In this document: piece by piece, positions 6,079 through 43,908 of the stretch
Layout of the letters: each line of letters begins with the position of its first letter
Position numbering within the stretch: the first letter of the stretch is position 1
From: a virus
Virus record (IMG/VR): IMGVR_UViG_3300043104_000084
Strand: one strand, 5' to 3'
DNA: 46,871 nucleotides
The notes under the pieces: model-generated
The model's database searches: none
What the model was told of the DNA's origin: nothing
The model's input: the letters and a program-made list of their open reading frames with translations, nothing else
Program-made: the position numbers and the translations under genes

Positions 6079-6455
6079 TATTCTATACCTCCGTTTCTCT
6101 TGTTTTTCTCTGCTTTTGTGACCGAATCGGTCACTTTCTGAAATTCTTTGATAATCTTGTTTGCCATTTCATCCGCTACCATGTGCGTAACTATATCCGT
6201 CTGCTCGTCAAGGTCGTTTCTGTTTTCAATCTGATTCTCTAAATTCTCTATCTGACCCTCCAACTCCCAAATCTTGTGTTGCATACTTATATTTGTTTCT
6301 CTCAACTCGTTGTATTCCTGCAATGTGATTTCTACGGTTGGACCCTTGATTGTGCTTTCTATGTACGCCCTGTACTCTTCTAACGGTATCTGTACCATTC
6401 TCGGCGGTACATACTCCTTTATCTCTTCCACCGCCTGTAATGTATCCTGCTTCAT
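6078..6455 (-). CDS. Hypothetical coiled-coil protein
   Basis: 125-aa ORF. Carries the perfect copy of the 17-nt palindrome near its 3' end. Confidence 0.55.
   Translation of the reverse strand: MKQDTLQAVEEIKEYVPPRMVQIPLEEYRAYIESTIKGPTVEITLQEYNELRETNISMQHKIWELEGQIENLENQIENRNDLDEQTDIVTHMVADEMANKIIKEFQKVTDSVTKAEKNKRNGGIE
6118..6134. repeat. 17-nt palindrome copy 1: GTGACCGAATCGGTCAC (perfect)
   Basis: Read directly. 40 nt upstream of the parB start. Encodes V-T-D-S-V-T. Confidence 0.9.
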
Positions 6456-6462
6456 TTCCTTT

Positions 6463-6744
6463 TTACCTCCTGTGCCTGCTATTCACAAATGCGGGTATCT
6501 GTATCTCTTTCTGCTTCTTTGCTTCGGAATCGGCAATACAACCTCTGATTTCTTCCAAAATCTCACTCGTTAAGGTTTCTGCTGTTTTTCTCTCTGCCAA
6601 CTCCTGCCTTGCCTGCTGCAACTCATATTCAAGCCTAACCTTTTCCGCAATCAGATTTCCGTATACCTCTGATGATATTGTTATGTACCCCTGCTCCTGT
6701 ACTGCTGCCTGTGTCCTGTACTCTGCTAACACCCCTGCTGCCAT
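6463..6744 (-). CDS. Hypothetical protein
   Basis: 93-aa ORF, co-directional. Confidence 0.5.
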   Translation of the reverse strand: MAAGVLAEYRTQAAVQEQGYITISSEVYGNLIAEKVRLEYELQQARQELAERKTAETLTSEILEEIRGCIADSEAKKQKEIQIPAFVNSRHRR

Positions 6745-6764
6745 AGTTCAATCCCTCCATTCTT

Positions 6765-6959
6765 TTATTTTCGTGTACTTCTCCTTTTCGGTATGCAACC
6801 CTCGCAATCCTCCGTATCCCTCAATTTGCTTATCTTGCAACCGCCTGTATGAAACATCATTTTTGATAAATGCTTACTGCAATTCGTGTTATCACACCGA
6901 TTATCACAAAACATAGGGTAATTATCGGTATTTACAATAAGAATAGGTCTACGCTCCAT
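6765..6959 (-). CDS. Hypothetical Cys-rich small protein
   Basis: 64 aa, several Cys pairs. ATG overlaps the upstream stop (TAATG). Confidence 0.45.
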   Translation of the reverse strand: MERRPILIVNTDNYPMFCDNRCDNTNCSKHLSKMMFHTGGCKISKLRDTEDCEGCIPKRRSTRK

Positions 6960-7171
6960 TACTTGTACTCCTTTCCTGTTTCCTTGTCCTTTAGGGTAAT
7001 GCGTCCTACCAACTCAAACCCTGCAAGGCTTATAATCTGCTTTAGCATTGTTATAAGGTTCGTTACTGCTGCATTTCTTTCTTTTGCTTCTTTCCGTTCC
7101 TCTTTTGCAAGTGTTCCTATCGCTTCTCCTGCTGTCGGGTCTGGGTATCCCTCCTTATTCCTGTATCCCAT
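6959..7171 (-). CDS. Hypothetical protein
   Basis: 70-aa ORF immediately downstream of parA. Confidence 0.5.
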   Translation of the reverse strand: MGYRNKEGYPDPTAGEAIGTLAKEERKEAKERNAAVTNLITMLKQIISLAGFELVGRITLKDKETGKEYK

Positions 7172-7172
7172 T

Positions 7173-7928
7173 CTATCCCTCCAAATACTCTTTAACGAAC
7201 GCCTTATAATCCCTAGCGGCCCCGGAACGTGGGGAATACTCCATAAGGCTCATATTTGTAAATGTAACCTCGTCCGCTTTCTCCGTCCGTCTAATGTGTG
7301 TCTTGAATACCGGGTAACGCTGCCCCTGTAAGTATTCCTCTCCCTGTCTGCATACATCACGGTTATAGAACATTGTCACAAGGCAACCTCTGAATTTAAG
7401 ACCGTGGTTTAACTGCTTTGCGTTGTTTATCTGCTCTTCCAGTTCGTCCATTCCGTCAAATGCGTATCCGTCAATCTTAATCGGTATGATTACCTCGTCT
7501 GCTGCCACAAGTGCGTTTATAACGGATATGTTTATATCCGGCGGGCAATCCACGATACAGTAATCAAATGCCTGTCCTATGCCCTGTAATTCCTCTGAAA
7601 GTATTGTTGCTTGGTTTATGTCCTCATTCTTAATTACTGTGAGATTGGCGGTAAGCAAGTGCATATTCGCCGGAATGATATACAGGTTTTCGCTCGTTTC
7701 CACTTCCTGCATTACTTCCCTTATCGTCTTTTCCCCTGTGAGAACATCCGCAAGGCTCGGCTTGTCATAACTCCACCGATTGCAAGCCTTTGATAGATTC
7801 CCCTGCTTGTCGTTGTCAATCAGCAAAACCCGCTTTCCGTAATCCCTTGCTAAGATATGAGCCATATTAACCGCCGTTGTGGTCTTGGCACATCCGCCTT
7901 TCATGTTAATAATTGCAATGGTTTTCAT
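7173..7928 (-). CDS. parA: ParA/Soj-family partition ATPase
   Basis: Deviant Walker A: IAIINMKGGCAKTTTAVNMA. 251 aa. Confidence 0.9.
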   Translation of the reverse strand: MKTIAIINMKGGCAKTTTAVNMAHILARDYGKRVLLIDNDKQGNLSKACNRWSYDKPSLADVLTGEKTIREVMQEVETSENLYIIPANMHLLTANLTVIKNEDINQATILSEELQGIGQAFDYCIVDCPPDINISVINALVAADEVIIPIKIDGYAFDGMDELEEQINNAKQLNHGLKFRGCLVTMFYNRDVCRQGEEYLQGQRYPVFKTHIRRTEKADEVTFTNMSLMEYSPRSGAARDYKAFVKEYLEG

Positions 7929-8103: not shown

Positions 8104-8135
8104 TATCCCCCTCCTGTTTGTATGTCTTGTATGAT

Positions 8136-9325: not shown

Positions 9326-9363
9326 ATCTCATTACCTCCGTGTTGTTTTCTTTTGATGATTCT

Positions 9364-9392
9364 ATTATATACTTATATAAGTATAATTGCAA
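9364..9392 (-). promoter_or_regulatory. Sigma-70-type promoter TTGCAA-17 nt-TATAAT with palindromic operator O1 filling the spacer
   Basis: Minus strand reads TTGCAAttatacttatataagtaTATAAT. Confidence 0.65.
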
Positions 9393-9466
9393 CCCGGTAT
9401 AATTCACAAATATACTTGTATAAGTATATTCATAATTTGTGCAACTTGTATACTTATATAAGTATT
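9368..9466. promoter_or_regulatory. Operators O1-O3 of the 18-bp palindrome TATACTTATATAAGTATA
   Basis: O1 9368..9385 (perfect), O2 9411..9428 (TATACTTGTATAAGTATA), O3 9449..9466 (17/18). Confidence 0.75.
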
Positions 9467-9761
9467 ATTGAGTATTTCCCATTTTTTCTTTCAACTGCTG
9501 CCGTTTTTCTTTCAGATACTTCATGTAATCGCCGTATGTCATTCCTTTAGGCGTGATTTTCTTTTGTATTTCCTGTGCCTGCTGCACTTTTTCCGTTAAT
9601 ACTGCTGCCTTTGTTACCTTTCTCGGCTCTTGCTCCGGCTGTTCTATCGGCTTTATTCCTAACCGCCTTGCCTGTCTGTTTGGCTTTGCCGTGTTGTATG
9701 TAAGTATGTTGTTACCGCCCTTGTGGTACACCTTTCTTTTCCGCTTCTTAGATTTTGCCAT
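9465..9761 (-). CDS. Hypothetical basic protein
   Basis: 98-aa Lys/Arg-rich ORF. Confidence 0.5.
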   Translation of the reverse strand: MAKSKKRKRKVYHKGGNNILTYNTAKPNRQARRLGIKPIEQPEQEPRKVTKAAVLTEKVQQAQEIQKKITPKGMTYGDYMKYLKEKRQQLKEKMGNTQ

Positions 9762-10132: not shown

Positions 10133-10445
10133 TTACCGCCTCTCCCAATGCGTCTAATATCCCCAAATAGACCCTTTCCGCACAATACACGCATATACTG
10201 TTACCTATTGCCCTGTACCGTGCTGTGTCCGCTATTTCCGTGCCGTCTGCTCCGTATCTGGTCCAATCGTCCGGGTATCCCTGCAAGCGTTCGCACTCAA
10301 TCGGAATCAATCGGCGGATAACATAAACAACCGTCTGTACTTTTTTCTTTAATATGTCTTTAATGCTTCTCTTAGGCTTGCTAGGGATATTCTCCCTTGT
10401 CTTGGTACTCTCTGTTATCAGAGTTTCCGACCCTCCGCCGTATGA

Positions 10446-10453
10446 CCCCCCCC
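10446..10453. repeat. Homopolymer C8 (G8 on coding strand) at the dcm frameshift point
   Basis: Counted directly: gaCCCCCCCCgc. Confidence 0.9.
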
Positions 10454-10995
10454 GCTGCTCTTAAAGTGCCGTTAATCTCTGTTTCCCTGTATCCTCCGTG
10501 TTGGTTTTCCTCAAATGCTTTCTTGTCGGTTTTTACTACCAACGGCGTATCTCCCCTTATGGTGTTATTCTGTCCGGCTGTTAATGTTCCGCTTGTACCG
10601 CTTTCCCTGTATCCGTGGTGCTGATACGCTTCGTAGAAAACGCTATGCACATCCTGTACCGTCAATGTAGGACACGGACCCCCGACCTCTCCAACGCCTA
10701 ATCCGTTGCTATTCTTCATCCGTGTAACCTCGTTTCGGAGTGGAGTTACATTCTTTTTCTCAATGAATACCGTTGTTGTTCCGCCCGTCATTATCGTAGG
10801 TGCTTTTTCCTCTTCGTATCCTAACCCTTTTCCGTTACCGCCTTGATTGTATATAAAGCCTGCTGCCTTTTCTTCTTTCAAAATGCACGGTACTTGACCT
10901 CCTGCACTTCCCATGTTCTGCAAGAGAGTAGGCGTTTTATCCTCAAATGTCCTTACCACGCTGTCAGCGTGTGCAAAGTCAAGACCTAAAACCTC

Positions 10996-11002
10996 CCCCC
11001 CT
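10996..11002. repeat. Homopolymer C7 (G7 on coding strand) inside dcm, at the end of the +1 overlapping ORF
   Basis: Counted directly: cctCCCCCCCtcgg. Confidence 0.9.
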
Positions 11003-11723
11003 CGGCTACTTTCTGTTCTAATGCTATCCGTAGGTTGTCCGGCAGTTTCCGCCCTTTCGCCTTTGCTCTTCGGAGTATACCCAAGCAGGCTTTCGGACTT
11101 AAAAAGTATTTCTCCTGCACGTTGTCCTCCAAAATCTCCGACAAGGTAGATTCTCTTTCTACGTTGGGGTACTCCCCAATATTGAGCGTCAAGGATTCTC
11201 CAAGCGGTGTCAACTGCTGCCCCTCTAACCATTCCTGCGTTTCCCCATTTTCCACTTGCAGGCATTGGAATATCGGTTTTTGTGATTGCTTCAAGCACGG
11301 CTCTAAAATCCGCTCCGTCCCGACTTGAAAAAGCACCGGGTACGTTTTCCCAAATAATGAAAGTTGGATATTTTCCATTTGTTGCTAACCTCATTTCGTC
11401 TATAATTCGTATTGCTTCCATGAACAACCCCGAACGGTTGCCTTTTAACCCTTTTCTCTGCCCTGCTATGCTTAAATCTTGGCAAGGACTACCAAAAGTG
11501 ATTATATCCACAGGTTGTATTTCATCCCCTTTTAATTCCGTCACGCTCCCAACGTGCATTACTTCCGGGAAACGGAATCTTGTAATGTCAATACAACTCT
11601 GCTCTATCTCTGCTGCCCATATCGGCTTTATCCTGCCTGTAAGCGTTGCTGCATAGCAGAAACCGCCGATACCGTCAAACAGGCTTCCTAGTGTTAATTC
11701 TGCTGCCATATTCCGACCTCCCG

Positions 11724-12025: not shown

Positions 12026-12313
12026 TTACCAGTCCTCCAATTTCTTAACTCTCGCCTGTAGATTGGCTATTGTCGTTTTCATATCCTCTATCTGATACGG
12101 CAACACGTCCGTGTTTTCAAACATATACAGGACTTCTACCGCCCTGTCTGTACTGATACCCTGTTTTAATCGTGGCTTCTTGCTCTTTGGGTCAATCTCT
12201 GTTAATCTGCCATTCTTAAACTTTTTCTTGGTATCCTTTGCCGGCCCCGGCATTGCCTTTTTTATCATGTTGTAATATGGGATTCCCGCCCCGGCTAATC
12301 CGTCAAGTCGCAC
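12026..12313 (-). CDS. Hypothetical protein
   Basis: Start chosen at GTG 12313, 7 nt after AGGGAGGG. The track ORF begins at TTG 12346. Confidence 0.45.
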   Translation of the reverse strand: MRLDGLAGAGIPYYNMIKKAMPGPAKDTKKKFKNGRLTEIDPKSKKPRLKQGISTDRAVEVLYMFENTDVLPYQIEDMKTTIANLQARVKKLEDW

Positions 12314-12956
12314 TCTGCAACCCTCCCTCTTCCGTGTCGGTGTCAATATCCTGTATTGCTCCCTTTTGTCTTAAATACCTGTCAAGAAAATGTACTGCAC
12401 CGTCAAATTTTACTCTGTATTTGTCTACATCTGCTACCGTTATGTATTGCCTGCCGTATATTTCTTTCATATCTCGCCATACATTCCAAGGAATAAAGAA
12501 AAAATCGTCCTGTATATTCACGCATACGCCACATAACGCTCCTAACCTGTTGTGTTTCTCCAATGCTTCCATTTGCGTATCTGTAAGCACATTCCGGGTT
12601 ATTCTGTCTTTGCTTGTCCGCTTCGCTTCAAACATGATAGAGCGTCCCCCGTATAAGGTCCCTTGAAAGTCCGGTTGTGCCGGAGTGCTGAAACGACCTG
12701 TAAATATTCCGTCACGGCTTTTCTTTTGTACTCTGAACGGTTCGGGCGTTTTGTCTATCACGGCTATATTGTGCTGTGCGTAATATCTGCACCCGGCTAA
12801 AATCTCTCTTTCAAAGTGCTGCCCCTGTGCGTTGTTCCTCCTGTTTTGGTACTGCTGCCGTAATTTGCTTTCGTCTATCGGATTCTCTCTAGCCTGCTGC
12901 CATTTCTGCAACTCTTTCTCCGTGTCCGAATCGGTCACAATTCCTTGTCCTATCAC
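12303..12956 (-). CDS. recU: RecU-like Holliday-junction resolvase
   Basis: Pattern GQHFEREI...AVIDKTPEP...PDFQGTLYGGRSIMFEAKRT resembles the RecU catalytic core. Confidence 0.55.
   Translation of the reverse strand: MIGQGIVTDSDTEKELQKWQQARENPIDESKLRQQYQNRRNNAQGQHFEREILAGCRYYAQHNIAVIDKTPEPFRVQKKSRDGIFTGRFSTPAQPDFQGTLYGGRSIMFEAKRTSKDRITRNVLTDTQMEALEKHNRLGALCGVCVNIQDDFFFIPWNVWRDMKEIYGRQYITVADVDKYRVKFDGAVHFLDRYLRQKGAIQDIDTDTEEGGLQSAT
12922..12938. repeat. 17-nt palindrome copy 2: GTGTCCGAATCGGTCAC
   Basis: Read directly. Encodes VTDSDT at residues 7-12 of the RecU-like protein. Confidence 0.9.
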
Positions 12957-15171: not shown

Positions 15172-16026
15172 CTAATCCCTCACTTTCCGCAACCGTAGGT
15201 AGACGCTCCACCCGGTATAATCGTTATACTGAAAATCTATCTTTGTCGGCTCATACCCCATGTACTGCTTACGCCATACCTCTTTATCTTCCGGGGTCTG
15301 TGCTAATTCCCTTAATTTTCTGAAACTATATTTATGGTCGTTTTTCTTTTCCTTTGGTTTCTCTAAATTCTGTGATGTACTCCATTTCTTGCACCCTTTT
15401 TTACGCTTATTGATATAGTTTACCAATCCCTCTATACCGTTTTCGTTTGGCTGCAATCTGTCACAATTTACGAATCCTAAATAGTCAACATTGTTTCTGT
15501 ACTCTGTATCCTCTGCCTTTTTCCAATTTATCCTTGTACTGCTCCACATCAACTCTAAATCCTCCCTCGGAAGTCCTGCGTTGATGATAATATGGTGGTG
15601 GATTCTTACCGCCTTGGTCTGCTTGTCCTCCGTTCCCTCTAAGGTCAACTGCTGCCCCTCTTCATCCTCCGGCGTGTATTCCGTCACAAGCATATATTTA
15701 AGGTCTTTCCCTGTTATCTTTTTCATTCTCCTTTTGACCCTATTTAGATAGTTATGTACGTTCTTTTCCGCTTCCTCCAAGGTCATAGGCAGGTGCTTAT
15801 CATTGTATGTTGCCGATATGTGTAAATCTCCTGCCCCAAAATTGGTATTGGCTATCTGAACGAACCGCCTTTTGCTCCTTTTTTCGTTCAAATTCTTTTG
15901 AGCCTGTGAGGATTTCCCTTTTTTCTCTTTCCCTGCTTCCGGCATATTCGTAACCGGGATTATATCTACCTCTAGCCACTCTTGACCGCAATATACCCTC
16001 TTCTCTCTAATGAAACTCTTACGCAT
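15172..16026 (-). CDS. Putative HUH-type rolling-circle replication initiator
   Basis: Three ordered motifs resemble RCR Rep motifs I-III: DLHISATY, RIHHHIIIN, GLVNYINKRKK. Confidence 0.5.
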   Translation of the reverse strand: MRKSFIREKRVYCGQEWLEVDIIPVTNMPEAGKEKKGKSSQAQKNLNEKRSKRRFVQIANTNFGAGDLHISATYNDKHLPMTLEEAEKNVHNYLNRVKRRMKKITGKDLKYMLVTEYTPEDEEGQQLTLEGTEDKQTKAVRIHHHIIINAGLPREDLELMWSSTRINWKKAEDTEYRNNVDYLGFVNCDRLQPNENGIEGLVNYINKRKKGCKKWSTSQNLEKPKEKKNDHKYSFRKLRELAQTPEDKEVWRKQYMGYEPTKIDFQYNDYTGWSVYLRLRKVRD

Positions 16027-16083
16027 TTATCCAATTCTCCTTATACTATCTTTCCACCTCTTCCCCTATATGCCCTCATAACA

Positions 16084-16119
16084 TATACTTATATAACTAT
16101 ACATACTTATACAAGTATA
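16084..16119. promoter_or_regulatory. Operators O4-O5 (tandem, abutting) upstream of rep-like gene
   Basis: O4 16084..16101 TATACTTATATAACTATA; O5 16102..16119 CATACTTATACAAGTATA. Confidence 0.7.
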
Positions 16120-16202: not shown

Positions 16203-16231
16203 TTGACATTGAGCAAGCCTTATAGTATAAT
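16203..16231 (+). promoter_or_regulatory. Perfect consensus sigma-70 promoter on the plus strand (TTGACA-17 nt-TATAAT)
   Basis: TTGACA 16203..16208, TATAAT 16226..16231. No plus-strand gene follows. Confidence 0.65.
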
Positions 16232-18541: not shown

Positions 18542-19219
18542 CTATTCCTCTTCCGTGAGGATAGAAGATTTAAACACACAAGCCGGGCGAACGCCAATGT
18601 AACCATAGTACGCATTGTAGTCGTCGAGCGAACCGTCCGTGTACACAATCCGGGCATAATGGTTAATTGTGCTGTCAGCCGTGATTAACCACCACCAATC
18701 CTCTATCCGGTGGATAAACTGGCGGTACTTCCTGTACTGTTCACAAGTAAGCAGAAAAACCTTGTCCGTACTGCTGCCGTAATCCTTTAATCCGTCATCC
18801 GTTGTCAAATCCTGCTCCTGCTCCAAAATCGCCCCCGTATCCTGTCCTTTTGCTTTCATTTCCTCGCATAATGCGTTAAGGAATTTTCCGTTAAGGCGTT
18901 CTCTAAGGCTCGATTTCTTCCAATCGTTGCTGTTTTCCTCGTCAAATGCCTTGTACTCTACGATTTCGTCCGTAATGCAAAGTACCCTGTCCTCGTCCTT
19001 TGCCAATACATCCCAAACCAAACCGCCGATTTTTACCCTGCTGCCCTCTGCGTAATCTGCTAACTGCTTCATTTCCTTTTCCTCCTTGTTAATTTTGCTA
19101 ACCGTCCTGCACCACGATATAGCATTGTTTTTAGTTGCCTTTATAGTTCCCGTGATACTCATGTTTTGCCCGAAAATTTCACATTGTTTCGGCATATAAA
19201 GCACATCATCATGTTTCAT
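18542..19219 (-). CDS. DGR target protein 2: stand-alone variable C-type-lectin-like domain protein (VR2 at C-terminus)
   Basis: C-terminus WWWLITADSTINHYARIVYTDGSLDDYNAYYGYIGVRPACVF is paralogous to the VR1 region. Alternative start ATG 19072 has a strong GGAGGA RBS. Confidence 0.8.
   Translation of the reverse strand: MKHDDVLYMPKQCEIFGQNMSITGTIKATKNNAISWCRTVSKINKEEKEMKQLADYAEGSRVKIGGLVWDVLAKDEDRVLCITDEIVEYKAFDEENSNDWKKSSLRERLNGKFLNALCEEMKAKGQDTGAILEQEQDLTTDDGLKDYGSSTDKVFLLTCEQYRKYRQFIHRIEDWWWLITADSTINHYARIVYTDGSLDDYNAYYGYIGVRPACVFKSSILTEEE
18575..18658 (-). repeat. DGR variable repeat VR2
   Basis: 84 nt aligned to TR 28941..29024. 11 mismatches, all at TR adenines (coding strand). Confidence 0.85.
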
Positions 19220-19626: not shown

Positions 19627-19809
19627 CTATACTGTCCTCTGTGCCGTATCAGCCTTGTATGGAGTTCCCCCACGCTTTAACTCGTTGTAGATTGTTGCAC
19701 GGTGTACTCCTATACTTTCTGCAATCACTACTACACGCTCGCCGGACTTGCACATTTTTTCTATTTTCTGCCTGTCCTCGTAGTTCAATCGCCTATTTCC
19801 TTTTCTCAT
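19627..19809 (-). CDS. Stand-alone HTH protein resembling the N-terminal HTH of IS30 transposases
   Basis: LNYEDRQKIEKMCKSG...IAESIGVHRATIYNELKRG parallels MSRSDRIKMEALLNAG...HRSTIYREYEKG of the adjacent transposase. Confidence 0.55.
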   Translation of the reverse strand: MRKGNRRLNYEDRQKIEKMCKSGERVVVIAESIGVHRATIYNELKRGGTPYKADTAQRTV

Positions 19810-19994: not shown

Positions 19995-21032
19995 CTATGC
20001 CAATTTCTGCAATTCTTCCTCGAATAACTCCGCTGATGTTCTATAATCAAAAATTCCCCTTGGATAGTGGTTTATCCAGTTCTCTATATATTCTATCTCT
20101 TCATCCGTTGTATCCTCAAAGTCTACTCCCTTTGGTATGTGCCTGCGTATGAGCCTGTTATTGTTCTCGTTCGTTCCCCTTTCCCAACTACTGTAAGGGT
20201 GGCAGTAAAAAACATAAGTCCTCTTTTCCTCTCTTAGTGCTGATTTCTCCATGCCCTCATAATCTGCAAACTCTACGCCATTATCTACCGTTATGCTTCT
20301 GAATATCTTATAGAACATATCGCCCCATTTTCTCTCTAACCGGTCCAATGCTTTCACTACAGACGCTGCCCCTTGGTCTTTCAGTTTGATAACTATTTCA
20401 TCCCTCGTCTTTCTCTCTGTCAGTACAAGCATACAGGACTTTGTAACGCCACGCTGCCCCTTTACCGTATCCATTTCCCAATGTCCGAATATCTCTCGGC
20501 TCTCTATCTCTTCCGGGCGATTTTCTATACTTTCTCCTGCACTTGCCCTCTTCTGTACCTTTACCTTTTTATTGTGTTTCTTCCTTTTCCCCTTTATCGG
20601 TAATTCCTTATTTGTCAGTTTAAGGAAGATTCCATTATCAATATATCTGTATAGCGTCCTCACGCTAATTGTTGTCTTAAATTCAATTCCCGACCTTGTG
20701 ACCTCTGCTAGTGCTGCTTCCGGGCTAAACCTGTCATTTACTATTTTGTCCTCTATGTACTCTGCCAACTCCCTATCGTTCCCGATTTTTAACGCCCTGC
20801 CTTTCCCCTCTTGGGCGTAATCGTGTGCTTTCTGTCCTAAATCGCTGCTATATCTTTCTTCCTCTGTGTAATCTGAATTTCTGTGTATATACTTTCCCTT
20901 TTCGTATTCCCTGTATATCGTACTCCTGTGAAAATGTAATTGTTCTGCTACCTCCGCCTTTGTATGTCCGGCGTTTAGCAATGCTTCCATTTTTATACGG
21001 TCACTCCTGCTCATTTGCTTAAATTTTCTCAT
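19995..21032 (-). CDS. IS30-family DDE transposase
   Basis: N-terminal HTH. HWEMDTV, ITVDNGVEF and SWERGTNENNNRLIRR (DDE triad context). Start at ATG 21032 after GGAGGTG. Confidence 0.85.
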   Translation of the reverse strand: MRKFKQMSRSDRIKMEALLNAGHTKAEVAEQLHFHRSTIYREYEKGKYIHRNSDYTEEERYSSDLGQKAHDYAQEGKGRALKIGNDRELAEYIEDKIVNDRFSPEAALAEVTRSGIEFKTTISVRTLYRYIDNGIFLKLTNKELPIKGKRKKHNKKVKVQKRASAGESIENRPEEIESREIFGHWEMDTVKGQRGVTKSCMLVLTERKTRDEIVIKLKDQGAASVVKALDRLERKWGDMFYKIFRSITVDNGVEFADYEGMEKSALREEKRTYVFYCHPYSSWERGTNENNNRLIRRHIPKGVDFEDTTDEEIEYIENWINHYPRGIFDYRTSAELFEEELQKLA

Positions 21033-21060
21033 TGTATACACCTCCAAACGCCAAAAGGCA

Positions 21061-21097: not shown

Positions 21098-21706
21098 CTA
21101 ATTTTCTTCGTTTACCTTTTCAATATCTCCGTTATCCGTATATACAAAGTATTCTCCTAAAGGCGTACCGCTAAACATTGCCTTTGCGTCCTGCTCTTCT
21201 CCGTCCGTATACTCATATAAGGATACATCCAAAAATCCGGCTGGCTTACTGATACTTGCCGTTGTCTTGGTAGTCAGATTTACCACCGCTAAAATGGTTT
21301 CGTCAGAATCAAAGTAATTTTCATAGCATGATAGGGCATACTCTGTAATGTCTATATTGTTTTCCGCAATAACCAAGCATTTCCATTTTCCTGTAACATC
21401 ATTCCTTACGGTGTTGTATACTACAGGCTTCAAATCGTCAATGCTCTTTTCACTTATCCCTACTATGCTATCCCCTGTCCTGTGTTCTACCTCTTCTTTT
21501 GCCTGTTCTGTGGTTTCCGGCTCTGCCGTTTCGTCCTGCTGCTCTGTTTCTGCTTCGGTTAAATCAGCAGTACCCCCCCCCCGAACATTCGTTTGTGCTT
21601 CTGTGTTCGCCGTTTCCTGCGTGTTGTCCTTGCTATTATTTGCCAATAATCCATAGCATAAAAGCACCGCCACAACCGCAATGATGATAATGTGTTTTTT
21701 CTTCAT
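21098..21706 (-). CDS. Membrane-anchored/exported acidic protein (contains G10 tract)
   Basis: N-terminal hydrophobic segment KKHIIIIAVVAVLLCYGLLA, then a low-complexity acidic linker and a globular C-terminus. Confidence 0.6.
   Translation of the reverse strand: MKKKHIIIIAVVAVLLCYGLLANNSKDNTQETANTEAQTNVRGGGTADLTEAETEQQDETAEPETTEQAKEEVEHRTGDSIVGISEKSIDDLKPVVYNTVRNDVTGKWKCLVIAENNIDITEYALSCYENYFDSDETILAVVNLTTKTTASISKPAGFLDVSLYEYTDGEEQDAKAMFSGTPLGEYFVYTDNGDIEKVNEEN
21573..21582. repeat. Homopolymer C10 (G10 on coding strand), currently in frame (R-G-G-G)
   Basis: Counted directly: taCCCCCCCCCCga. Confidence 0.9.
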
Positions 21707-21729: not shown

Positions 21730-21746
21730 GTGTCCTAATCGGTCAC
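21730..21746. repeat. 17-nt palindrome copy 3: GTGTCCTAATCGGTCAC (intergenic)
   Basis: Flanked by CC/GG. Ends about 15 nt upstream of the RBS of 21098..21706. Confidence 0.85.
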
Positions 21747-22005: not shown

Positions 22006-22045
22006 TGTTTCAACTCCTTTCCTGCTATCTCCTTGCTACAATTAT

Positions 22046-22074
22046 ATTATATACTTATATAAGTATAATGTCAA
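22046..22074 (-). promoter_or_regulatory. Perfect consensus promoter TTGACA-17 nt-TATAAT with operator O6 filling the spacer
   Basis: Minus strand reads TTGACAttatacttatataagtaTATAAT. Confidence 0.7.
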
Positions 22075-22099
22075 GCGTTTTTATACTTATATAAGTATT
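22050..22099. promoter_or_regulatory. Operators O6-O7
   Basis: O6 22050..22067 (perfect); O7 22082..22099 (17/18), abutting the RHH gene stop. Confidence 0.75.
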
Positions 22100-22100
22100 T

Positions 22101-22298
22101 TTAACTCCGGCTTTTCTTCTCGTTTATTGCAGCAACCACAAACTCATTACGGCTACTATATCCCTGTTCCTTTGCTGCTCTGTCAATCTCTGCTTTTTCT
22201 CCTGTCGGAACGGTAACTAAAAACTGGTCGTATGCTTTTGCATTGTATTTGTTCTTTGCTCTTGTGGCAGGCGTTCCGCCTGTTCTTTCCTCTGCCAT
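22101..22298 (-). CDS. Arc/MetJ-type ribbon-helix-helix DNA-binding protein
   Basis: 65 aa. NAKAYDQFLVTVPTGEKAEIDRAAKEQGYSSRNEFVVAAINE fits a beta-strand/helix/helix layout. Operators flank the gene on both sides. Confidence 0.7.
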   Translation of the reverse strand: MAEERTGGTPATRAKNKYNAKAYDQFLVTVPTGEKAEIDRAAKEQGYSSRNEFVVAAINEKKSRS

Positions 22299-22867: not shown

Positions 22868-22884
22868 GTGTCCGAATCGGTCTA
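22868..22884. repeat. 17-nt palindrome copy 4 (degenerate right end): GTGTCCGAATCGGTCTA
   Basis: Intergenic, immediately upstream of the RBS of 22458..22847. Confidence 0.75.
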
Positions 22885-27596: not shown

Positions 27597-28749
27597 TCTT
27601 TTTTACCTCCTGCTTTTTCTTTCTTGCTCTTTGCCTTTGCTCATTGTATCTTTTCAGTTTTTCATATCTCGCCTTTTCTGTATCAGAGAGGTAATCAATG
27701 AATAAACCATAAAAATAACAATCCATTTCCTGTAACATATAGTAGGTATCTCCACGGCTTGCGTGTGCTTTCCATGATTGGTAGGAATCTTTCACGGCTT
27801 CGTATGTTATTTCCTTACGGTCTACCTTTGCTTTCATTTTCCGTAGTTTCTGCCTTTCGTGGCTCTTGCTTTTCGCCTTTATCCGGCAAACTACTTTCCC
27901 GCTTTCCGTAAGGTATACATGAAACCCCAAATAATTTATGCCTGTCGTAACAGGCACAATCTTTGTTTTCTTGGCATTAAGTTTTAACCCTAACCCCTCT
28001 GCCATTTTCCCTATTTCCTTTAGGCAGAATTTCAAGTATTCCTTGCTCTCATGGATTAAATAAAAATCATCATTGTACCTTGCAAATCCTCCGATTTTCA
28101 ACCGTTCTTTTATCATGTGGTCTATCGGACTTCCTGCTATCAATGCGTCCAACTGTGATAACTGGTTGCCAAGCGGTACGCCGTACTCTCCGCCTGTGCT
28201 TGCGTGTATCATCCGTATAAGTCTGATTATCCGCTCATCCTTAAACTCACGCTCGTATGCCCTGTTTAACAACTCATGTGATAAACTGTCAAAATATCCC
28301 GAAAAATCACATACAAGGATGTATCCGCTTGTGCCGTGTATCCTGTAATGGTGTCTTAAATCCTCTTTCAGACAATCCAATGTAAAATCTGTGCCTTTTC
28401 CTTTTAGGCTCGCACCATTGCTATAAACAAATGTCGGTGCAATCCTCGGTGTTAAGATATTGTCACATAGATTTTTCTGCACAACTCTATCTTTGTATTT
28501 TGCACTTTTTATATTTCTTAGTTTTCCTCTCTCGTTGACCGTAAAGCAATGATATTTCCCTATGCTATACTTTTCTGACATCAAGAGGTACTGCAAATAC
28601 AATGTGCTTTCCAATGCCCTTAAATCGTATGTTGCTACGCTGTCTTTCCACCTTTTGCCCTGCCTGCAATTCCTGTGCGATTCGTACAGATTTCCAAAAT
28701 CTGTGAGGATTCCGTAATCGTCATATTTATTTTCTTTTCTTGTAATCAT
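27577..28749 (-). CDS. DGR reverse transcriptase
   Basis: YNDDFYL (YxDD box) and VPLGNQLSQ (the DGR-type GxxxSQ motif). Start set at ATG 28749 (MITRKENKYDDYG...). The track ORF runs on through the spacer into the TR. Confidence 0.9.
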   Translation of the reverse strand: MITRKENKYDDYGILTDFGNLYESHRNCRQGKRWKDSVATYDLRALESTLYLQYLLMSEKYSIGKYHCFTVNERGKLRNIKSAKYKDRVVQKNLCDNILTPRIAPTFVYSNGASLKGKGTDFTLDCLKEDLRHHYRIHGTSGYILVCDFSGYFDSLSHELLNRAYEREFKDERIIRLIRMIHASTGGEYGVPLGNQLSQLDALIAGSPIDHMIKERLKIGGFARYNDDFYLIHESKEYLKFCLKEIGKMAEGLGLKLNAKKTKIVPVTTGINYLGFHVYLTESGKVVCRIKAKSKSHERQKLRKMKAKVDRKEITYEAVKDSYQSWKAHASRGDTYYMLQEMDCYFYGLFIDYLSDTEKARYEKLKRYNEQRQRARKKKQEVKKNGKVIK

Positions 28750-28940
28750 GTCGTTTTTCTTTCTGAAAAAATCCACACCGCATACAAATGAGTACATAAC
28801 CCAACTACTCCAAATGTGGGGCATGGGTGTCGGTGTTCCTTTATTTGTCATGCACATATATCCTGCACGACCGGGGTATACCCTCCTTGTGTGGTATTCT
28901 GATTTCTGCGGTAAAAACCGCCTACTCTGTCGCATTTTTC

Positions 28941-29046
28941 CACTCAATCCGGGCGAACGCCATTGTTACCATTGTACGCATTGTTGTTGTTGAGCGAACC
29001 GTCCGTGTTCACATTCCGGGCATTGTAGGAATTGGACGCATACGGT
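28941..29046 (-). repeat. DGR template repeat (TR)
   Basis: Coding-strand TR is rich in AAC/AAT codons and carries an in-frame TGA at its 3' end. Lies between avd and RT. Confidence 0.9.
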
Positions 29047-29072
29047 TAAACAGGGTATACCCCAAAATCTTT

Positions 29073-29507
29073 TTATTTTGTTTTTACTTCATCCGTGAAT
29101 TTTTCTCCAAATCTTTCCTCGTCTTTCTTTAACCATGCTGCGGTTAATGTCCTAACCTCAAATACTGACTTCGCCCAAAATGACGCTTTATCATAACCCA
29201 AATTGAATAATTCCTTGCTAATATCTATCAGCGTCATAAGGCTACGGCAATACGCCATAGCCTGCCTTTGTTTTGTCCGTCTGAATAGGTATTCTTCTCT
29301 CGTCTTTGGGAATATTTCGTTTGCTTCAATCAAGCAAGCCACTATTTCCACGGCTTTATCCTGCATTTTATTTACTACCGATAACCTGTAACGCTTTGGA
29401 AAATTCTTCTCATTATTCGTAATCCTCAAAGTGTATATAACCATTTCTTTCGCCTTTACGATAACGGTTAAATCTCCCTGCGTCCTTTCTCCTGCCCTTA
29501 CGCTCAT
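29073..29507 (-). CDS. avd: DGR accessory variability determinant (Avd-like four-helix-bundle protein)
   Basis: 144 aa, basic, pattern ...KAKEMVIYTLRITNNEKNFPKRYR... Located immediately upstream of the TR. Confidence 0.7.
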   Translation of the reverse strand: MSVRAGERTQGDLTVIVKAKEMVIYTLRITNNEKNFPKRYRLSVVNKMQDKAVEIVACLIEANEIFPKTREEYLFRRTKQRQAMAYCRSLMTLIDISKELFNLGYDKASFWAKSVFEVRTLTAAWLKKDEERFGEKFTDEVKTK

Positions 29508-29511
29508 AGGC

Positions 29512-30243
29512 TTATGCGTACAGGCACTTGTTTGTACTGTCGTACATACCGCTTACCATGATTACATCATCATTACTTGAAAATGTTTCTATAACCACAT
29601 TGTCCGAATCCATAATATCAGCGTCCGTTAATGTTGCCATTGTCATAGCCATTTGCAACATTTCCCTTTTCATGGTATCCATGCTCTTTTCCGTGTTTCC
29701 GACAATGCTTAACGCTTCCTGTATCTGCTCCTGCGTTGTCTGATTGATATTGTCAATGAGAGCCTTTACCTCCAAGCGTAAATTTTCAACATCTTTCTTT
29801 GTTGCCATAACTACGCTTGGGTCTACAATCAGTTCCACGCTCTCTGTATTTGCCAATGCAATTTCCATTGACAAATCCAATTCATGTACTACGCCGTCCG
29901 ATACCCTTACTTTCTGCGTGTCCGGCGTGTTGCAAATTGCAATCAATACGCCGTCCTCGTCAAACAATCCCATTTCACGGATTGTAAAACCGCCTGCGTC
30001 TGACGGTATCACGGATTCCACGATTAAGAGGTTTTCCGATTCCTCACTAATGTAGCAGGCGTTTACCGTTCCCCTCCATACCTCGTTTTTTAACGCCGTT
30101 GCTGCGGTTGTCGGATTGTAAAACCGTCCTCCGCCATCTCCTACCGCAAACTGTGTAATGTTTACTTTCTTTTCCTCGTTCAATGCTTCAAGCATTTTCC
30201 GTGTGCCCGAATCGGTCACAAGTGTAAAATATGTGCTTGCCAT
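29512..30243 (-). CDS. Tail fibre N-terminal/collar protein (P2 gpH N-terminal-domain-like)
   Basis: ITQFAVGDGGG...P....T.L.NEVWRG and FTIREMGLFDEDG motifs are typical of the tail-collar fibre domain. Confidence 0.65.
   Translation of the reverse strand: MASTYFTLVTDSGTRKMLEALNEEKKVNITQFAVGDGGGRFYNPTTAATALKNEVWRGTVNACYISEESENLLIVESVIPSDAGGFTIREMGLFDEDGVLIAICNTPDTQKVRVSDGVVHELDLSMEIALANTESVELIVDPSVVMATKKDVENLRLEVKALIDNINQTTQEQIQEALSIVGNTEKSMDTMKREMLQMAMTMATLTDADIMDSDNVVIETFSSNDDVIMVSGMYDSTNKCLYA
30203..30219. repeat. 17-nt palindrome copy 5: GTGCCCGAATCGGTCAC
   Basis: Encodes VTDSGT at residues 9-14 of the fibre collar protein. Confidence 0.9.
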
Positions 30244-38007: not shown

Positions 38008-38566
38008 TACTCCTTTCCCTTTCCTGCTTTTTCTTCCTCTACCATTTCGTTATACTCTGTAATCCAAGTGTTTAACTCTCTCACGGTAAGGTGTAGCCAA
38101 TAGTCAATACCTGTATTTGTTTCCCTTGCTAATAAAATGCAGTTTCTTCTTATCCATTTAGCCGGGTTTTTTAGTTTGCCAAACCCGCACTTAGTAAAAA
38201 ATTCCTGCTTTCATCCTTTACCTTTGCAAAATCACGGATAGGCAGATTTTCGATTACATCACTTCCTACCCTCGCTGCCCTTGCTGCCAACTTTGACAGG
38301 TAAGATGTAGAGATTTCCGGGGATAATGCAAATTCCCCAACTGCTGCCATTTCCGCTTCAATGGCAAGCATATCTTTACCGATAAGACCGTCAAAATTAA
38401 ACACAAACTCCGTGTATGTCTTATCCTCGTATGTGTACGGTTTAGAGAGTTTTACTCTTTTGCCCTCTGCCTGTGTGTCCGAATCGGTCACTTTTTCCTT
38501 TTCTGCTTCCTCTGCTGCCTGTAATGCTGTCTTTTCGTTCATTTCTGCAATCTTCGTATCTTCCAT
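38008..38566 (-). CDS. Tail assembly chaperone G-T fusion made by -1 programmed frameshift
   Basis: The -1 frame after GGGTTTG stays open to TAG 38010..38008 and encodes ...KNPAKWIRRNCILLARETNTGIDYWLHLTVRELNTWITEYNEMVEEEK.... Confidence 0.55.
38171..38566 (-). CDS. Tail assembly chaperone (gpG-like)
   Basis: Between tube and tape measure genes. Start at ATG 38566 after GGAGGT; the upstream part of the track ORF is a terminator hairpin. Confidence 0.7.
   Translation of the reverse strand: MEDTKIAEMNEKTALQAAEEAEKEKVTDSDTQAEGKRVKLSKPYTYEDKTYTEFVFNFDGLIGKDMLAIEAEMAAVGEFALSPEISTSYLSKLAARAARVGSDVIENLPIRDFAKVKDESRNFLLSAGLAN
38180..38186 (-). promoter_or_regulatory. Slippery heptamer G GGT TTG (X XXY YYZ) for -1 frameshifting
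   Basis: Read directly, in the correct zero-frame phase, 3 codons before the gpG-like stop. Confidence 0.6.
38475..38491. repeat. 17-nt palindrome copy 6: GTGTCCGAATCGGTCAC
   Basis: Encodes VTDSDT at residues 26-31 of the chaperone. Confidence 0.9.
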
Positions 38567-38596
38567 TTTTGTTTTACCTCCACTTGGATTTAGGCA

Positions 38597-38622
38597 TAAG
38601 AAAAGCACGGTTTCCCGTGCCT
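38597..38622 (-). terminator. Intrinsic terminator/attenuator after the tube gene
   Basis: GCACGG-GAAA-CCGTGC followed by TTTTCTTAT on the minus strand. Confidence 0.6.
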
Positions 38623-41508: not shown

Positions 41509-41511
41509 GTC

Positions 41512-42126
41512 TTACCCTCCGTTCTTATTTAGCAACCTTTCTATTTCGTGGTCGATTCTCTGATTGATTACCTCGTTTACTCTGTCCTCCACGGTCTGCA
41601 TTACTTTATCGTTGCCTACCATTTGCGGTACTGCCGGAGATAGCAACTCTTTGAGCGTTTCCGTATGTTTGTTTCTTCCACTTCCACGGCTTGCGGAGTA
41701 TTTCCCCTCTTTACGCTGAAAGATACCGATATGCCCCGATTTCATTTGTGCCACAAAAACATCTTTCCTGTTCGCAAATGCTACTAGGCTACTTGCCTTT
41801 AATACTGCTGCACTCGGCGTTTTCTTCCTCTGCGGTGTTTTAGGCGATACCTTAAACTTTATAAGCGGTATCACTCCGCCCGAATACTTAATGCTGCCTA
41901 TAATTCCGTCCCCGGATTCAGACACATTTTTGTACTCCAACCGACCCTTGCTGTTAAAATCCGCTGCGGATATGTGGTAAGTCTGCCGTACTGCCTTTCC
42001 TGCTGCCGTCTTTCCTGCCATAAGTCCTCTTGTGAGAGCGGGTTTTAATACTTTCTTGTCTGCGTCCTGTACCCCTGCAAGTATGGCGTGTATCCTGTCT
42101 AAATTCTGCTCGCTAACCTCAATCAT
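41512..42126 (-). CDS. Tail completion protein, lambda gpZ-like
   Basis: 204 aa. N-terminal ...ILAGVQDADKKVLKPALTRGLMAGKTAAGKAVRQTYHIS... resembles minor tail protein Z. Confidence 0.5.
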   Translation of the reverse strand: MIEVSEQNLDRIHAILAGVQDADKKVLKPALTRGLMAGKTAAGKAVRQTYHISAADFNSKGRLEYKNVSESGDGIIGSIKYSGGVIPLIKFKVSPKTPQRKKTPSAAVLKASSLVAFANRKDVFVAQMKSGHIGIFQRKEGKYSASRGSGRNKHTETLKELLSPAVPQMVGNDKVMQTVEDRVNEVINQRIDHEIERLLNKNGG

Positions 42127-42467
42127 TACTCGTCAAACCTTTCTAAACTTAAAATCAGTTCGTTATACTCCGTTCGCTCGTCCTCAATCTTGTATAGTTC
42201 GCCCTCTATCCATATCCTCGCCCCCTGCCGTGGCTCTTTCTCAAAATCGGAAAGTTTCGCCCTCACAACGGTTATATCTTGGACTATTCCCTCTGCGTTG
42301 TCTGCAACTGTATCTTTTCGGCTTTTCATTTCCTCCAAATCAAATATGACGGGAATGTTTTTTACAACCCCGTCATACTTAATTCTTTTTACCTCTGCAA
42401 ACTCGCCTGTGTTGTAGAATGTTCCCAAGTCGGTATCAAGCATTTCCTTAAAATTTTTCATAGGCAC
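42126..42467 (-). CDS. Head-tail adaptor/joining protein
   Basis: 113 aa, immediately after the major capsid gene. Confidence 0.45.
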   Translation of the reverse strand: MPMKNFKEMLDTDLGTFYNTGEFAEVKRIKYDGVVKNIPVIFDLEEMKSRKDTVADNAEGIVQDITVVRAKLSDFEKEPRQGARIWIEGELYKIEDERTEYNELILSLERFDE

Positions 42468-42473
42468 ACCGCC

Positions 42474-43529
42474 TTAACATACCTCTGCAATGTACCAAGA
42501 ATCCACCTCATGCGGTACGCAAAGAGGGGCAGAATTTAACTGAACAAAACGCCTTGCCGGACTTCTCTTTACCCACTGCTCCGGTACTCTCGCTCCCTCT
42601 TCTACTCCAATGCTCTTTCCCTGCTCGTCCACGATTCCAACCGCACCGTAGTACATTGAGTATCTCGCTTCCGTGGAAAGAAGAGCAACAATGTTAGCAG
42701 GAAGTAACGGCTTATCCTCCGGCTTCGCCTTGTCCGTCCAGTTATCCAAGTACCACTCGTTGTATGTGTAAATATCCATTGCTAACTCATGGATTGTACC
42801 CACATAAGTAGCACCGTTCGGCAACTCTTTAGGTGCGATTACTGCAACTTCAAACCGTCTTACATCAAGCACTTTCTGTACTTCCTCGTCTGACAAGAAC
42901 GCTTCCAATGCGTCCGCACCCATAAGGCAGATATTGCAGTTTACAAAACCTGTTTTCTGCACCTGCTTTCTCCACGCCTTTAACTGTGCGATTTTTCCGC
43001 CCTGTTTCTTGTTCCATTTATCAGCGTCCTTTAACTTTTCGGTGTTGGTAAAGTTAAAATCAATCTCTGCCTGTAACTCCTTTCCGTCCTTATCAAGAAT
43101 CGGAATCTTGCCAGTAAACAACGCTTGGCAGCACATCCACTCTTCACGGCGTGTAATCATTTCGTCCAGTTCTGCAAAGTCACGCTGCAACTTCTCTACT
43201 GCACGCTGATTAGGACTTTTGCCGTTGTAAAGGCTCTCCCCCGGTGTACGCTTCAAAATATCGTCAACCGTTGTAATCTTGTTCGGTGCTACAAGTGGCG
43301 GTTCGTAGGTGCTTGTCTGGAATCCCTCGTTGTCGATTGTCGCACCGCCGATTTTCTTATGTACGAACGGTGCTAACTGTCTGTTTCCTTTCTTAAAATC
43401 CACATCAATTTTTGCGGTATCGAATGTTTCCACGTTTCTGAAAAACGTGTCCTTGATGAATGTATGCACTTTCGGCATACGCTCAACCAATTTACCCATT
43501 GTTCTAGGGTCGTAAATGCTGATTGCCAT
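42474..43529 (-). CDS. Major capsid protein, lambda gpE family
   Basis: 351 aa. N-terminal ...FIKDTFFRNVETFDTAKIDVDFKKGNRQLAPFVHKKIGG is typical of the gpE family. Confidence 0.85.
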   Translation of the reverse strand: MAISIYDPRTMGKLVERMPKVHTFIKDTFFRNVETFDTAKIDVDFKKGNRQLAPFVHKKIGGATIDNEGFQTSTYEPPLVAPNKITTVDDILKRTPGESLYNGKSPNQRAVEKLQRDFAELDEMITRREEWMCCQALFTGKIPILDKDGKELQAEIDFNFTNTEKLKDADKWNKKQGGKIAQLKAWRKQVQKTGFVNCNICLMGADALEAFLSDEEVQKVLDVRRFEVAVIAPKELPNGATYVGTIHELAMDIYTYNEWYLDNWTDKAKPEDKPLLPANIVALLSTEARYSMYYGAVGIVDEQGKSIGVEEGARVPEQWVKRSPARRFVQLNSAPLCVPHEVDSWYIAEVC

Positions 43530-43551
43530 AATGTTTTATTCTCCTTTTCTT

Positions 43552-43908
43552 TTACTTGCTTGCGTTTTCAGTATCCACCAAGAAAATATTTAATTTTCTG
43601 AACGGTGCTTTAAAGTCCGCTGCGGTAGTTCCTGCCGGGACTTCGATAGAATCCCCGAAAAACTGACCTGTCAGATAGATTACTACCTCTTCGCCCTCTT
43701 CGGCGTTTTCCGCTGCCAAACCGTAAACATTTGCTACCGTGTCTGATGTAACGGCTTTTAATTTTCCGTCCTCTCCAAGTACCACGGGCATAAGTTCAAC
43801 GATTGTTTCCCCCTCTGCCACCGTGCCCGAATCGGTCACAACCGGAAAATCCCCGGCGTGTACCATTTTAGGCTCATAACTTCCTAACAATTCTTTTCCT
43901 GCTGCCAT
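43552..43908 (-). CDS. Head decoration protein (lambda gpD-like)
   Basis: 118 aa, between the protease and the major capsid gene. Confidence 0.55.
   Translation of the reverse strand: MAAGKELLGSYEPKMVHAGDFPVVTDSGTVAEGETIVELMPVVLGEDGKLKAVTSDTVANVYGLAAENAEEGEEVVIYLTGQFFGDSIEVPAGTTAADFKAPFRKLNIFLVDTENASK
43823..43839. repeat. 17-nt palindrome copy 7: GTGCCCGAATCGGTCAC
   Basis: Encodes VTDSGT at residues 24-29 of the decoration protein. Confidence 0.9.

Follow-up and report, generated by a model that had tools for sequence, protein, structure and literature searches.

N15 is a linear extrachromosomal prophage of Escherichia coli whose SopB protein is of type Ia and has four sites, unrelated in sequence to the one described here. 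The dispersed sopC-like centromere inverted repeats of its SopAB system were reportedly described by Ravin and Lane in 1999 and by Grigoriev and Lobocka in 2001, and the KorB operators of plasmid RK2 are said to have been described by Balzer et al. in 1992. In the KorB-IncC system of RK2/IncP-1 plasmids, the OB operators are scattered over the plasmid (PMC11790492), and scattered ParB sites on mobile elements are thus already known (N15, RK2; PMC5016525). Here we analyze a 17-bp palindromic word that occurs seven times in IMG/VR virus record IMGVR_UViG_3300043104_000084 (the window, the whole stretch of 46,871 nt that was analyzed), and its relation to a ParB-family protein encoded at 4606-6078. 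A 127-nt repeat at the window ends sets the circle at 46,744 bp, and the window is the complete, circularly permuted genome of a temperate myovirus with a Lachnospiraceae host.

Like N15, this is a temperate phage with ParA and ParB homologs and with single short palindromic candidate ParB sites that are scattered and form no array. An original prediction, made from the sequence alone, had named N15 as the precedent; the scattered sites are indeed alike, but RK2 KorB is at least as close. There too, a ParB-family cytidine triphosphate (CTP) clamp with a ParA partner goes with a short palindrome scattered on a mobile element of ~50-60 kb, and the clamp loads and slides, as predicted for the window.

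We conclude that the seven palindromes are probably parS-type loading sites for the phage's own ParB. This was the first-listed hypothesis of the original prediction, and it is strongly supported by the placement of the site at the parA-parB junction, its co-variation with the ParB helix-turn-helix, and the universal co-occurrence of ParA and ParB, from which we infer binding. The sites exist, they are under selection at the DNA level, they are linked to parAB, and they vary together with the helix-turn-helix of ParB. Binding, CTP-dependent sliding, coverage of the whole genome and a biological pay-off are predictions drawn from sequence.

The seven copies and their conservation as DNA

All seven copies stand at exactly the coordinates and with the sequences first reported for them. 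They had been listed on the plus strand, correctly as copies, but the genes lie on the minus strand, so the word on the coding strand is GTGACCGATTCGG[A/G/T]CAC. Copy 1 (6118..6134, GTGACCGATTCGGTCAC on the coding strand) is a perfect palindrome within the last 18 codons of open reading frame (ORF) 6078-6455, 39 nt upstream of the parB start codon; we take this parB-proximal copy as the ancestral site. Copy 2 (12922..12938, GTGACCGATTCGGACAC) occupies codons 7-12 of the longest RecU ORF (12303-12956), upstream of the RecU domain, which begins at residue 36-44, and in several relatives it may be part of a 5' leader rather than of the protein. Copies 3 and 4 are intergenic and directly upstream of ribosome-binding sites: copy 3 (21730..21746, GTGACCGATTAGGACAC, one mismatch) is followed after 23 nt by the start of ORF 21098-21706, and copy 4 (22868..22884, TAGACCGATTCGGACAC), whose first three bases are the stop codon of an endolysin-like gene (22882-23775), is 20 nt upstream of the start of ORF 22458-22847. 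The remaining copies lie in codons 9-14 of a tail-collar fiber protein (copy 5, 30203..30219, GTGACCGATTCGGGCAC; gene 29512-30243), codons 40-45 of a tail assembly chaperone ORF (copy 6, 38475..38491, GTGACCGATTCGGACAC; ORF 38171-38608) and codons 24-29 of a head decoration protein (copy 7, 43823..43839, GTGACCGATTCGGGCAC; gene 43552-43908).

The earlier gene assignments hold for the ORF just upstream of the ParB_N protein, RecU, the tail-collar fiber, the tail assembly chaperone and the head decoration protein, and all 5/5 coding copies are in the single frame GTG ACC GAT TCG GNC ACN, giving VTDS(V/D/G)T. The claim that these copies lie within about 30 residues of a protein end fails for the tail chaperone, whose copy spans residues 40-45 of the longest ORF. 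As had been noted, five copies match the core CCGAATCGGTCAC exactly. The seven positions are the only ones in the window, with none further at <=3 mismatches, while dinucleotide-preserving shuffles (n=100) average 0.11 copies, with 2 at most. For the 9-mer CCGAATCGG the count is 6 where 0.17 are expected. Half-sites are not enriched on their own, a single orphan one being found in the window, at 1455. The gaps round the circle (6804, 8808, 1138, 7335, 8272, 5348 and 9039 bp) bear out the dispersed spacing.

Codon statistics, the intergenic copies and ortholog alignments agree with the proposal that a DNA word, and not a peptide, is under selection. The codons of the word are minor ones in this phage (TCG, 10% of Ser; ACC, 15% of Thr; GTC, 5% of Val), and given the peptides, the probability of the observed codons under phage codon usage is 1e-4 to 9e-4 per site. 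Synonymous-codon shuffles (n=2000) that kept every protein and the codon usage of each gene, the control that the original prediction had proposed, produced a mean of 0.008 copies and never >1, against the 5 in coding sequence. Orthologs were then compared in codon-level alignments, counting differences from the window sequence at the 14 specified bases and in the flanking codons. The word differs at 1/364 bases in the decoration protein (26 unique orthologs; flanks 23%), at 0/112 in the tail chaperone (flanks 46%) and at 3/392 in RecU (28 unique orthologous sequences; flanks 32%). Across these orthologs the word is kept at the nucleotide level, with 0-0.8% differing in the word and 23-46% in the flanks. 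Insertions and deletions adjoin the chaperone copy, and Clostridium phage Saumur, the nearest isolate to the window phage, has a deletion there.

One observation goes the other way. Distant homologs of the decoration protein have a peptide much like it, (L/V)T(E/D)SGT, but encode it differently (Ser by AGC, for example), which is the pattern expected of a protein-level motif. Copy 7 was therefore built on a compatible peptide that already existed and not forced into a neutral spot; the other evidence is at the DNA level, and a protein-level motif is rejected on the codon statistics, the intergenic copies and the ortholog alignments.

A scan of IMG/VR for the word returned >115 loci, of which ~85 are relatives of the window phage by manual count and the remainder chance or iteron matches; this heterogeneity means that raw match counts are not usable as family size. 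The relatives carry the word at orthologous positions. The site of copy 4 reads TAG... in one relative (L081) and is a full GTG... copy in another (L059), and for copy 5 the word is at the same gene junction in relatives. Additional copies arose in other clades too, in genes that are not orthologous to these, and there as well they stand no more than a few dozen codons from an end of the ORF. The word is a clean natural case of a protein-binding DNA word, as we predict it to be, kept inside coding sequence despite codon preference and gained repeatedly at protein termini.

Linkage of the word to parA and parB

The proposed binder is a ParB-family protein of 490 amino acids (4606..6078, minus strand; Pfam ParB_N, 1.8e-8, above the cut-off; phrog_4715, 1.8e-90). 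Its partner, ParA, is a short Walker-type ATPase of 251 amino acids (7173..7928, minus strand; Pfam AAA_31, 2.7e-47; phrog_164). ParB homologs were aligned and one genome per species of bacteria and archaea was scanned, giving 80 loci with ParB proteins 31-75% identical to that of the window, in Lachnospiraceae, Oscillospiraceae, Paenibacillus, Tepidibacter, Selenomonas and others. With the word called at <=2 mismatches in the 14 specified bases, it stands 30-90 bp upstream of parB in 57/77 loci that have upstream DNA, where a hand calculation expects ~0.03 by chance. The parA stop codon is often formed by positions 2-4 of the word (TGA), and the ribosome-binding site of parB follows 2-10 nt after it. 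Saumur, which has three copies, carries one between parA and parB, and in a locus whose ParB is only 35% identical (L083) three tandem copies fill the parA-parB spacer.

The association is specific to these two genes. Among 50 distant loci, parA is directly upstream of parB in 50/50, and ParA and ParB are the only window proteins with homologs in 50/50. The next best is the Rep protein (35/50); the sigma-like late regulator is present in 26/50 and the methyltransferase in 15/50; the RHH protein (22101-22298) and the integrase are outside the 25 most frequent co-occurring window proteins, and therefore each is found in <3/50 loci. In the window clade, four small ORFs (6959-7171, 6765-6959, 6463-6744 and 6078-6455) are inserted between parA and parB, which abut in most other loci; the word stays with parB and not with parA. 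Around their sites of translation initiation, parB (6067-6097) and the small ORF 79-315 (304-334) share 94% identity over 31 nt (CGGAGGTATAGAATAATGGCAGGA), far beyond chance.

The N-terminal part of the window ParB has the CTP-binding fold, and its arginine patch (Box II, GxxRxxA) is present as AGHRRRLAA at residues 90-98. Of its residues, G91 and R94 never vary across 12 diverse homologs, and R93 and R95 hardly do. In a search of PDB, the family profile finds Noc, Spo0J and ParB structures with values as low as 3e-14, and its positions 26-236 align with Helicobacter pylori ParB (4umk) across both domains. A helix-turn-helix is predicted at about residues 178-205, with the conserved pattern GR(I/T)R..A..L..S..Q.GR...I.NNL. 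The C-terminal half (~230 amino acids) has no Pfam match. In Saumur (L116, 32694-34109) and in a second relative (L063, 6262-7698), ParB ends in a PUA-like DUF3850 domain; these proteins are 31-32% identical to the window ParB over the full length and ~40% over the N-terminal 270 residues, and they have the same word at parB. In other clades the C-termini are Cys-rich or different again; the N-terminal and helix-turn-helix module is constant and the C-terminal effector is swapped. A 2025 PNAS survey found phage ParB-DUF3850 to be the only fusion consistently paired with parA, and one such protein binds CTP (PMC12704722). This survey of ParB-CTPase fusions gives no DNA site, and its authors speculate on an RNA link for ParB-DUF3850 (PMC12704722).

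Variants of the word change symmetrically on both arms and track the predicted recognition helix of ParB; the changes fall at positions 6/12 and 1/17. The variant GTGTCAGAATCTGACAC is found only with the helix SETKVAxLxxI in place of S..Q.GR...I, GTGTCCAAGTTGGACAC goes with a helix ending ...YNHL, and TTGACCGATTCGGACAA (TTG...CAA) goes with the helix TTPAQVGRYESIAKHL. In a set of 158 distinct word instances from relatives, positions 4 and 14 are non-complementary in 119/158 sites, the 75% expected at random, and the center is always A or T. The true consensus is therefore GTGNCCGAWTCGGNCAC, and the lack of constraint at positions 4/14 fits two half-sites read independently. All seven copies read GTGACC... 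on the coding strand, which could have meant that the word has a functional orientation. That was rejected, since A is favored at the free positions 4 and 14 and opposite orientations occur in other phages; the common orientation arises because these two positions take A on the purine-rich coding strand and because TGA or TAG is used as the stop codon of an upstream gene.

Compensatory changes on the two arms are also what a hairpin would leave, in RNA or in extruded DNA, acting as a processing site, an attenuator or a coupler of parA-parB translation and perhaps read by the PUA-like DUF3850. Four copies closely precede ribosome-binding sites, copy 1 has a folding energy of -10.7 kcal/mol (z = -4.9), and the RNA link speculated for ParB-DUF3850 (PMC12704722) would suit such a role. 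Most copies fold weakly, however, and the RNA hairpin was rejected: 5/7 fold no better or barely better than shuffles (z +0.2 to -1.7), and the middle stem pair 4/14 is unpaired at the random rate given above. The sequence itself is kept from Paenibacillus to Lachnospiraceae beyond what pairing demands, the word runs opposite to transcription in some phages, and the window ParB is without DUF3850. We consider a hairpin highly improbable.

Among plasmids in PLSDB, only the clostridial pCP13 group carries the ParB family of the window. The pCP13 ParB of Clostridium perfringens is homologous (38% identity), and parA and parB stand in the same order. In the interval between the two genes on this plasmid (L224, NC_003042.1, 1700-1718), ~35 bp upstream of parB, there is a perfect 19-bp palindrome, GGTGTCCCCGGGGGACACC. 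Its outer arms, GTGTCC...GGACAC, are the same, whereas the inner core differs (CCCGGGG), and it is single-copy in the first 8 kb.

The word could also belong to another dimeric protein, such as the RHH protein, an HTH_38 protein (19627-19809 or the integrase N-terminus), the sigma-like regulator, Rep or a host factor, with its place next to parB incidental or serving the regulation of parB by that protein. The link from ParB to the word is itself deduced, which leaves room for such a binder, and other protein folds can evidently read the word: in unrelated lambdoid-type phages (GC 48-63%), three to five tandem GT(G/T)ACCGATT(C/T)GGT(C/A)AC stand in lambda-O-like replication genes (L051, 4847-5974, with L064 and L002; L089, 6341-7192, with L016 and L018), translated in the same frame as VT(D/E)SVT repeats. 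The same word and frame are thus used as origin iterons by a different protein family. None of the candidates, however, co-occurs with the word as ParA and ParB do, the variants of the word follow the ParB recognition helix, and pCP13 plasmids, which are without phage genes, still have a related palindrome at the parA-parB junction. In the window the word is neither clustered nor inside the rep gene; lambda O-type origin iterons were rejected there, the copies being single, dispersed and none in or near Rep (15172-16026). Another binder is very unlikely.

Least probable of all, in our estimate, is that the copies are targets for nicking, modification or recombination, for instance by the phage methyltransferase (10381-11709) or by a site-specific nuclease or recombinase. 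Centrally spaced palindromes are typical of such enzymes, but 17 bp far exceeds methyltransferase or restriction targets, the methyltransferase is present in only 15/50 loci, and recombination between seven directly repeated sites would delete the genome. This explanation also leaves the placement at the parA-parB junction and the helix-turn-helix co-variation unaccounted for.

Taken together, junction placement, co-occurrence, helix-turn-helix co-variation and the pCP13 link indicate with high probability that ParB is the reader of the word. A literature search for the word returned only unrelated primers, and no description of a parS for this ParB family was found in the literature, in agreement with the earlier statement that no system with this word had been described. 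The prophage ParA/ParB module is widespread, and its DNA target, not known before, has very probably been identified here. For the large family of such parA-parB cassettes in gut Firmicutes, ParB-DUF3850 fusions among them, it would be the cis element that had been lacking.

Predicted action of ParB and its possible roles

In the mechanism that we propose, a ParB dimer would read the two half-sites GTGNCCGA through its helix-turn-helix, bind CTP through the GHRRR box, close into a clamp and slide off the site. The copy at the 5' edge of parB would be ancestral, common to the parA-site-parB cassettes of many Firmicute prophages and to the related pCP13 plasmids. The window lineage would have gained six further copies at gene boundaries or at tolerant protein termini, in the one frame that yields the innocuous VTDSxT. 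A site is never more than ~4.5 kb away anywhere in the genome, a distance inside the range over which ParB-type clamps are reported to spread. In its excised or replicating form, all of the 46.7-kb genome could then become a ParB-coated complex, positioned and segregated by ParA (7173-7928), possibly with an effect on transcription or DNA compaction.

Several points weigh against loading sites of this kind. In Bacillus subtilis ParB, E78 and E111 are required for CTP hydrolysis (PMC8494293), and both catalytic glutamates are replaced in the window ParB, E78 by H92, which is nearly invariant, and E111 by T132 (LILTN). The clamp cycle may therefore be atypical. Many ParB loci are deep inside contigs of 120 kb to 3.3 Mb. 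Since the relatives are integrated prophages and the window has a DDE integrase, plasmid-type partition is not obviously needed. Points placed at random on a circle would be less evenly spaced than the copies (P(max gap <= 9.0 kb) ~0.002; gap variance P ~5e-4 if the 1.1-kb pair is counted as one locus), but by a test picked after the data were seen. The published putative parS of pCP13-type plasmids is the 117-bp spacer after parB, another region than the palindrome upstream of parB (PMC4459074). Symmetric co-variation of the arms would equally keep an RNA or DNA hairpin. Finally, most distant relatives have only one or two copies of the word, so that dispersal is lineage-specific.

The replacements run through the family, in which GERR has become GHRR and ENLQR has become TNATAR. 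From these residues, CTP binding may be kept, with hydrolysis probably slow or absent. Hydrolysis-defective B. subtilis ParB mutants spread more broadly from parS (PMC8494293), and by analogy we infer long-lived clamps for the window ParB.

The integrated state bears equally on the suggestion of a phage-plasmid centromere. Its ParB-site part is supported, whereas a plasmid state is not established. The circular assembly, the Rep gene and the IS30-like DDE integrase all bear on the prophage state, Saumur is a prophage in the chromosome of the OMM12 strain Enterocloster clostridioformis YL32 (PMC10197239), and close ParB homologs (72-75% identical) lie deep in contigs of 124-362 kb, including those of cultured isolates. 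Roseburia sp. 1XD42-69 is one isolate with a member of the seven-site clade. The picture of a phage-plasmid centromere may be too narrow, and the word makes the role of ParABS in integrating prophages addressable.

An integrated lifestyle would suit a ParB that binds the same sites but serves mainly in gene regulation, with clamps that load, slide to promoters and silence or activate operons, and with the C-terminal half as the effector. RK2 KorB regulates in this way with KorA (PMC11790492), as does BisD of ICEclc with BisC (PMC12409273). The KorB operators are likewise scattered over RK2 (PMC11790492, PMC5016525), the lineage-specific C-termini (DUF3850 in Saumur, ~230 amino acids here) have a counterpart in the extra activator domain of BisD (PMC12409273), and loss of the catalytic glutamates would favor long-lived sliding clamps (PMC8494293). 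In addition, parB is closely followed, in 26 to 33 of 50 loci, by the genes for the sigma-like late regulator and the terminase. The promoters themselves argue otherwise. Every copy is clear of sigma-70-like promoters for ~300 bp, the distance that separates copy 3 from the closest strong one (22074..22046); a different palindrome is found at the strong promoters and a 38-nt repeat at the putative late ones. The presence of ParA with ParB in 50/50 loci points to positioning or segregation, and no KorA- or BisC-like partner was identified. We regard regulation as the main task of ParB, the leading alternative and one that begins with the same molecular event, as possible but unlikely. Operators at promoters were rejected, as no promoter-like site adjoins any copy and the other palindrome occupies the promoters; a KorB-style operator role is unsupported, although sliding over a long range could still reach a promoter.

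The other palindrome, TATACTTATATAAGTATA, forms a second family of six copies in three clusters (9359-9473, 16075-16108 and 22041-22106). It overlaps the best sigma-70-like promoters, on the minus strand at 9392..9364 and 22074..22046 (12/12 consensus), and a 12/12 plus-strand promoter (16203..16231) lies near one cluster. These copies are probably immunity-repressor operators. The 38-nt repeat is found at 41-78 and 3737-3774 (87% identical), with a minus-strand TTGCCC-17-TATGAT within it; one copy precedes the small terminase gene, and the second, where the head-gene block begins, follows ORF 79-315. The two are probably late promoters served by the sigma-like regulator (3773-4255).

More speculatively, a ParB family without catalytic glutamates and with lineage-specific C-termini might not serve in partition at all in these integrating phages. 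From the evenly spaced sites, long-lived ParB-CTP clamps would then coat the phage chromosome as a mark of 'self', with ParA as a spatial organizer, a reading that we consider conceivable at low probability. Such a coat might compact or position replicating DNA for packaging, shield it from host defenses or nucleases, or time the early-to-late switch. If true, it would be a new viral use of the ParABS machinery, and interest in the sites would rise if the coat served a phage-specific purpose.

Genome context and comparison with known systems

The window has a GC content of ~43% and strong, uniform GC and AT skew, with all credible genes on the minus strand. These include a lambda-gpA-type large terminase (315-2153), the small terminase (2773-3687), the sigma-like late regulator (3773-4255), the methyltransferase (10381-11709), RecU (12303-12956) and the Rep protein (15172-16026), all on the minus strand. 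The sole recombinase is an IS30-like DDE integrase (19995-21047, minus strand; HTH_38 and rve core; phrog_4646 'transposase'), and the same enzyme is at the end of the Saumur prophage. In the window it adjoins a probable attachment region. The phage group appears to integrate by a DDE transposase-type integrase and not by a tyrosine or serine recombinase. A diversity-generating retroelement (27577-29507) comprises a reverse transcriptase, Avd, a template repeat (28940-29046) and a variable repeat (26825-26931, 88%) in a Hoc-like protein (25878-27596). A second, more diverged repeat (76%) at 18574-18680, within ORF 18542-19219, suggests that the element has two targets.

With N15 the window clade shares several single dispersed sites, at gaps of 1.1-9.0 kb, and the orthologous sites are kept. 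It differs in that its relatives integrate (DDE integrase), its host is a Gram-positive anaerobe and its seven sites are evenly spaced, five of them in coding sequence in one frame, and in that its ParB is without both catalytic glutamates. On RK2, KorB has classes of operators at or near promoters and acts with KorA or TrbA, whereas none of the window copies adjoins promoter-like sequence; sequence and host phylum are unrelated, and no KorA-like partner was found in the window. The stoperators of mycobacteriophage L5, reportedly described by Brown et al. in 1997 as asymmetric sites that follow the direction of transcription and to which the immunity repressor binds, are alike in that many copies of one short word are spread across a temperate phage genome, often at gene boundaries. 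The window word is a palindrome whose link is to ParB and not to a repressor, and a separate operator-like palindrome stands at the promoters. A stoperator of the L5 type was rejected on the palindromic site, the opposite orientations in other phages and the ParB link.

By structure and by sequence, the N-terminal and helix-turn-helix domains of the window ParB match best the chromosomal ParB/Spo0J-parS and Noc-NBS systems of Firmicutes, which likewise use palindromes of 14-16 bp at several dispersed sites per replicon. The parS of ParB/Spo0J (TGTTNCACGTGAAACA) is unlike the window word; the window ParB is ~25-30% identical in the N-terminal domain only, has GHRR for GERR and TN for EN, and has an unrelated C-terminal half. 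In the BisD-bisS system of ICEclc, a ParB-like CTP clamp with an extra domain acts from parS-like sites on an integrated element and spreads over ~50 kb (PMC12409273). BisD differs in having two bisS sites, in being an activator with BisC and in being proteobacterial, with no ParA-dependent role described (PMC12409273). Among ParB-DUF3850 fusions (PMC12704722), Saumur and L063 ParB have exactly this architecture, and the window ParB is of the same family with a different C-terminal half. The word and its protein are a candidate orthogonal ParB/parS pair for DNA labeling in anaerobic Firmicutes. The principle of scattered sites is shared with N15 and RK2; the differences from them are the host phylum, the word, the integrative lifestyle, the lost catalytic residues, the number and evenness of the sites, and their embedding in coding sequence in a single frame.

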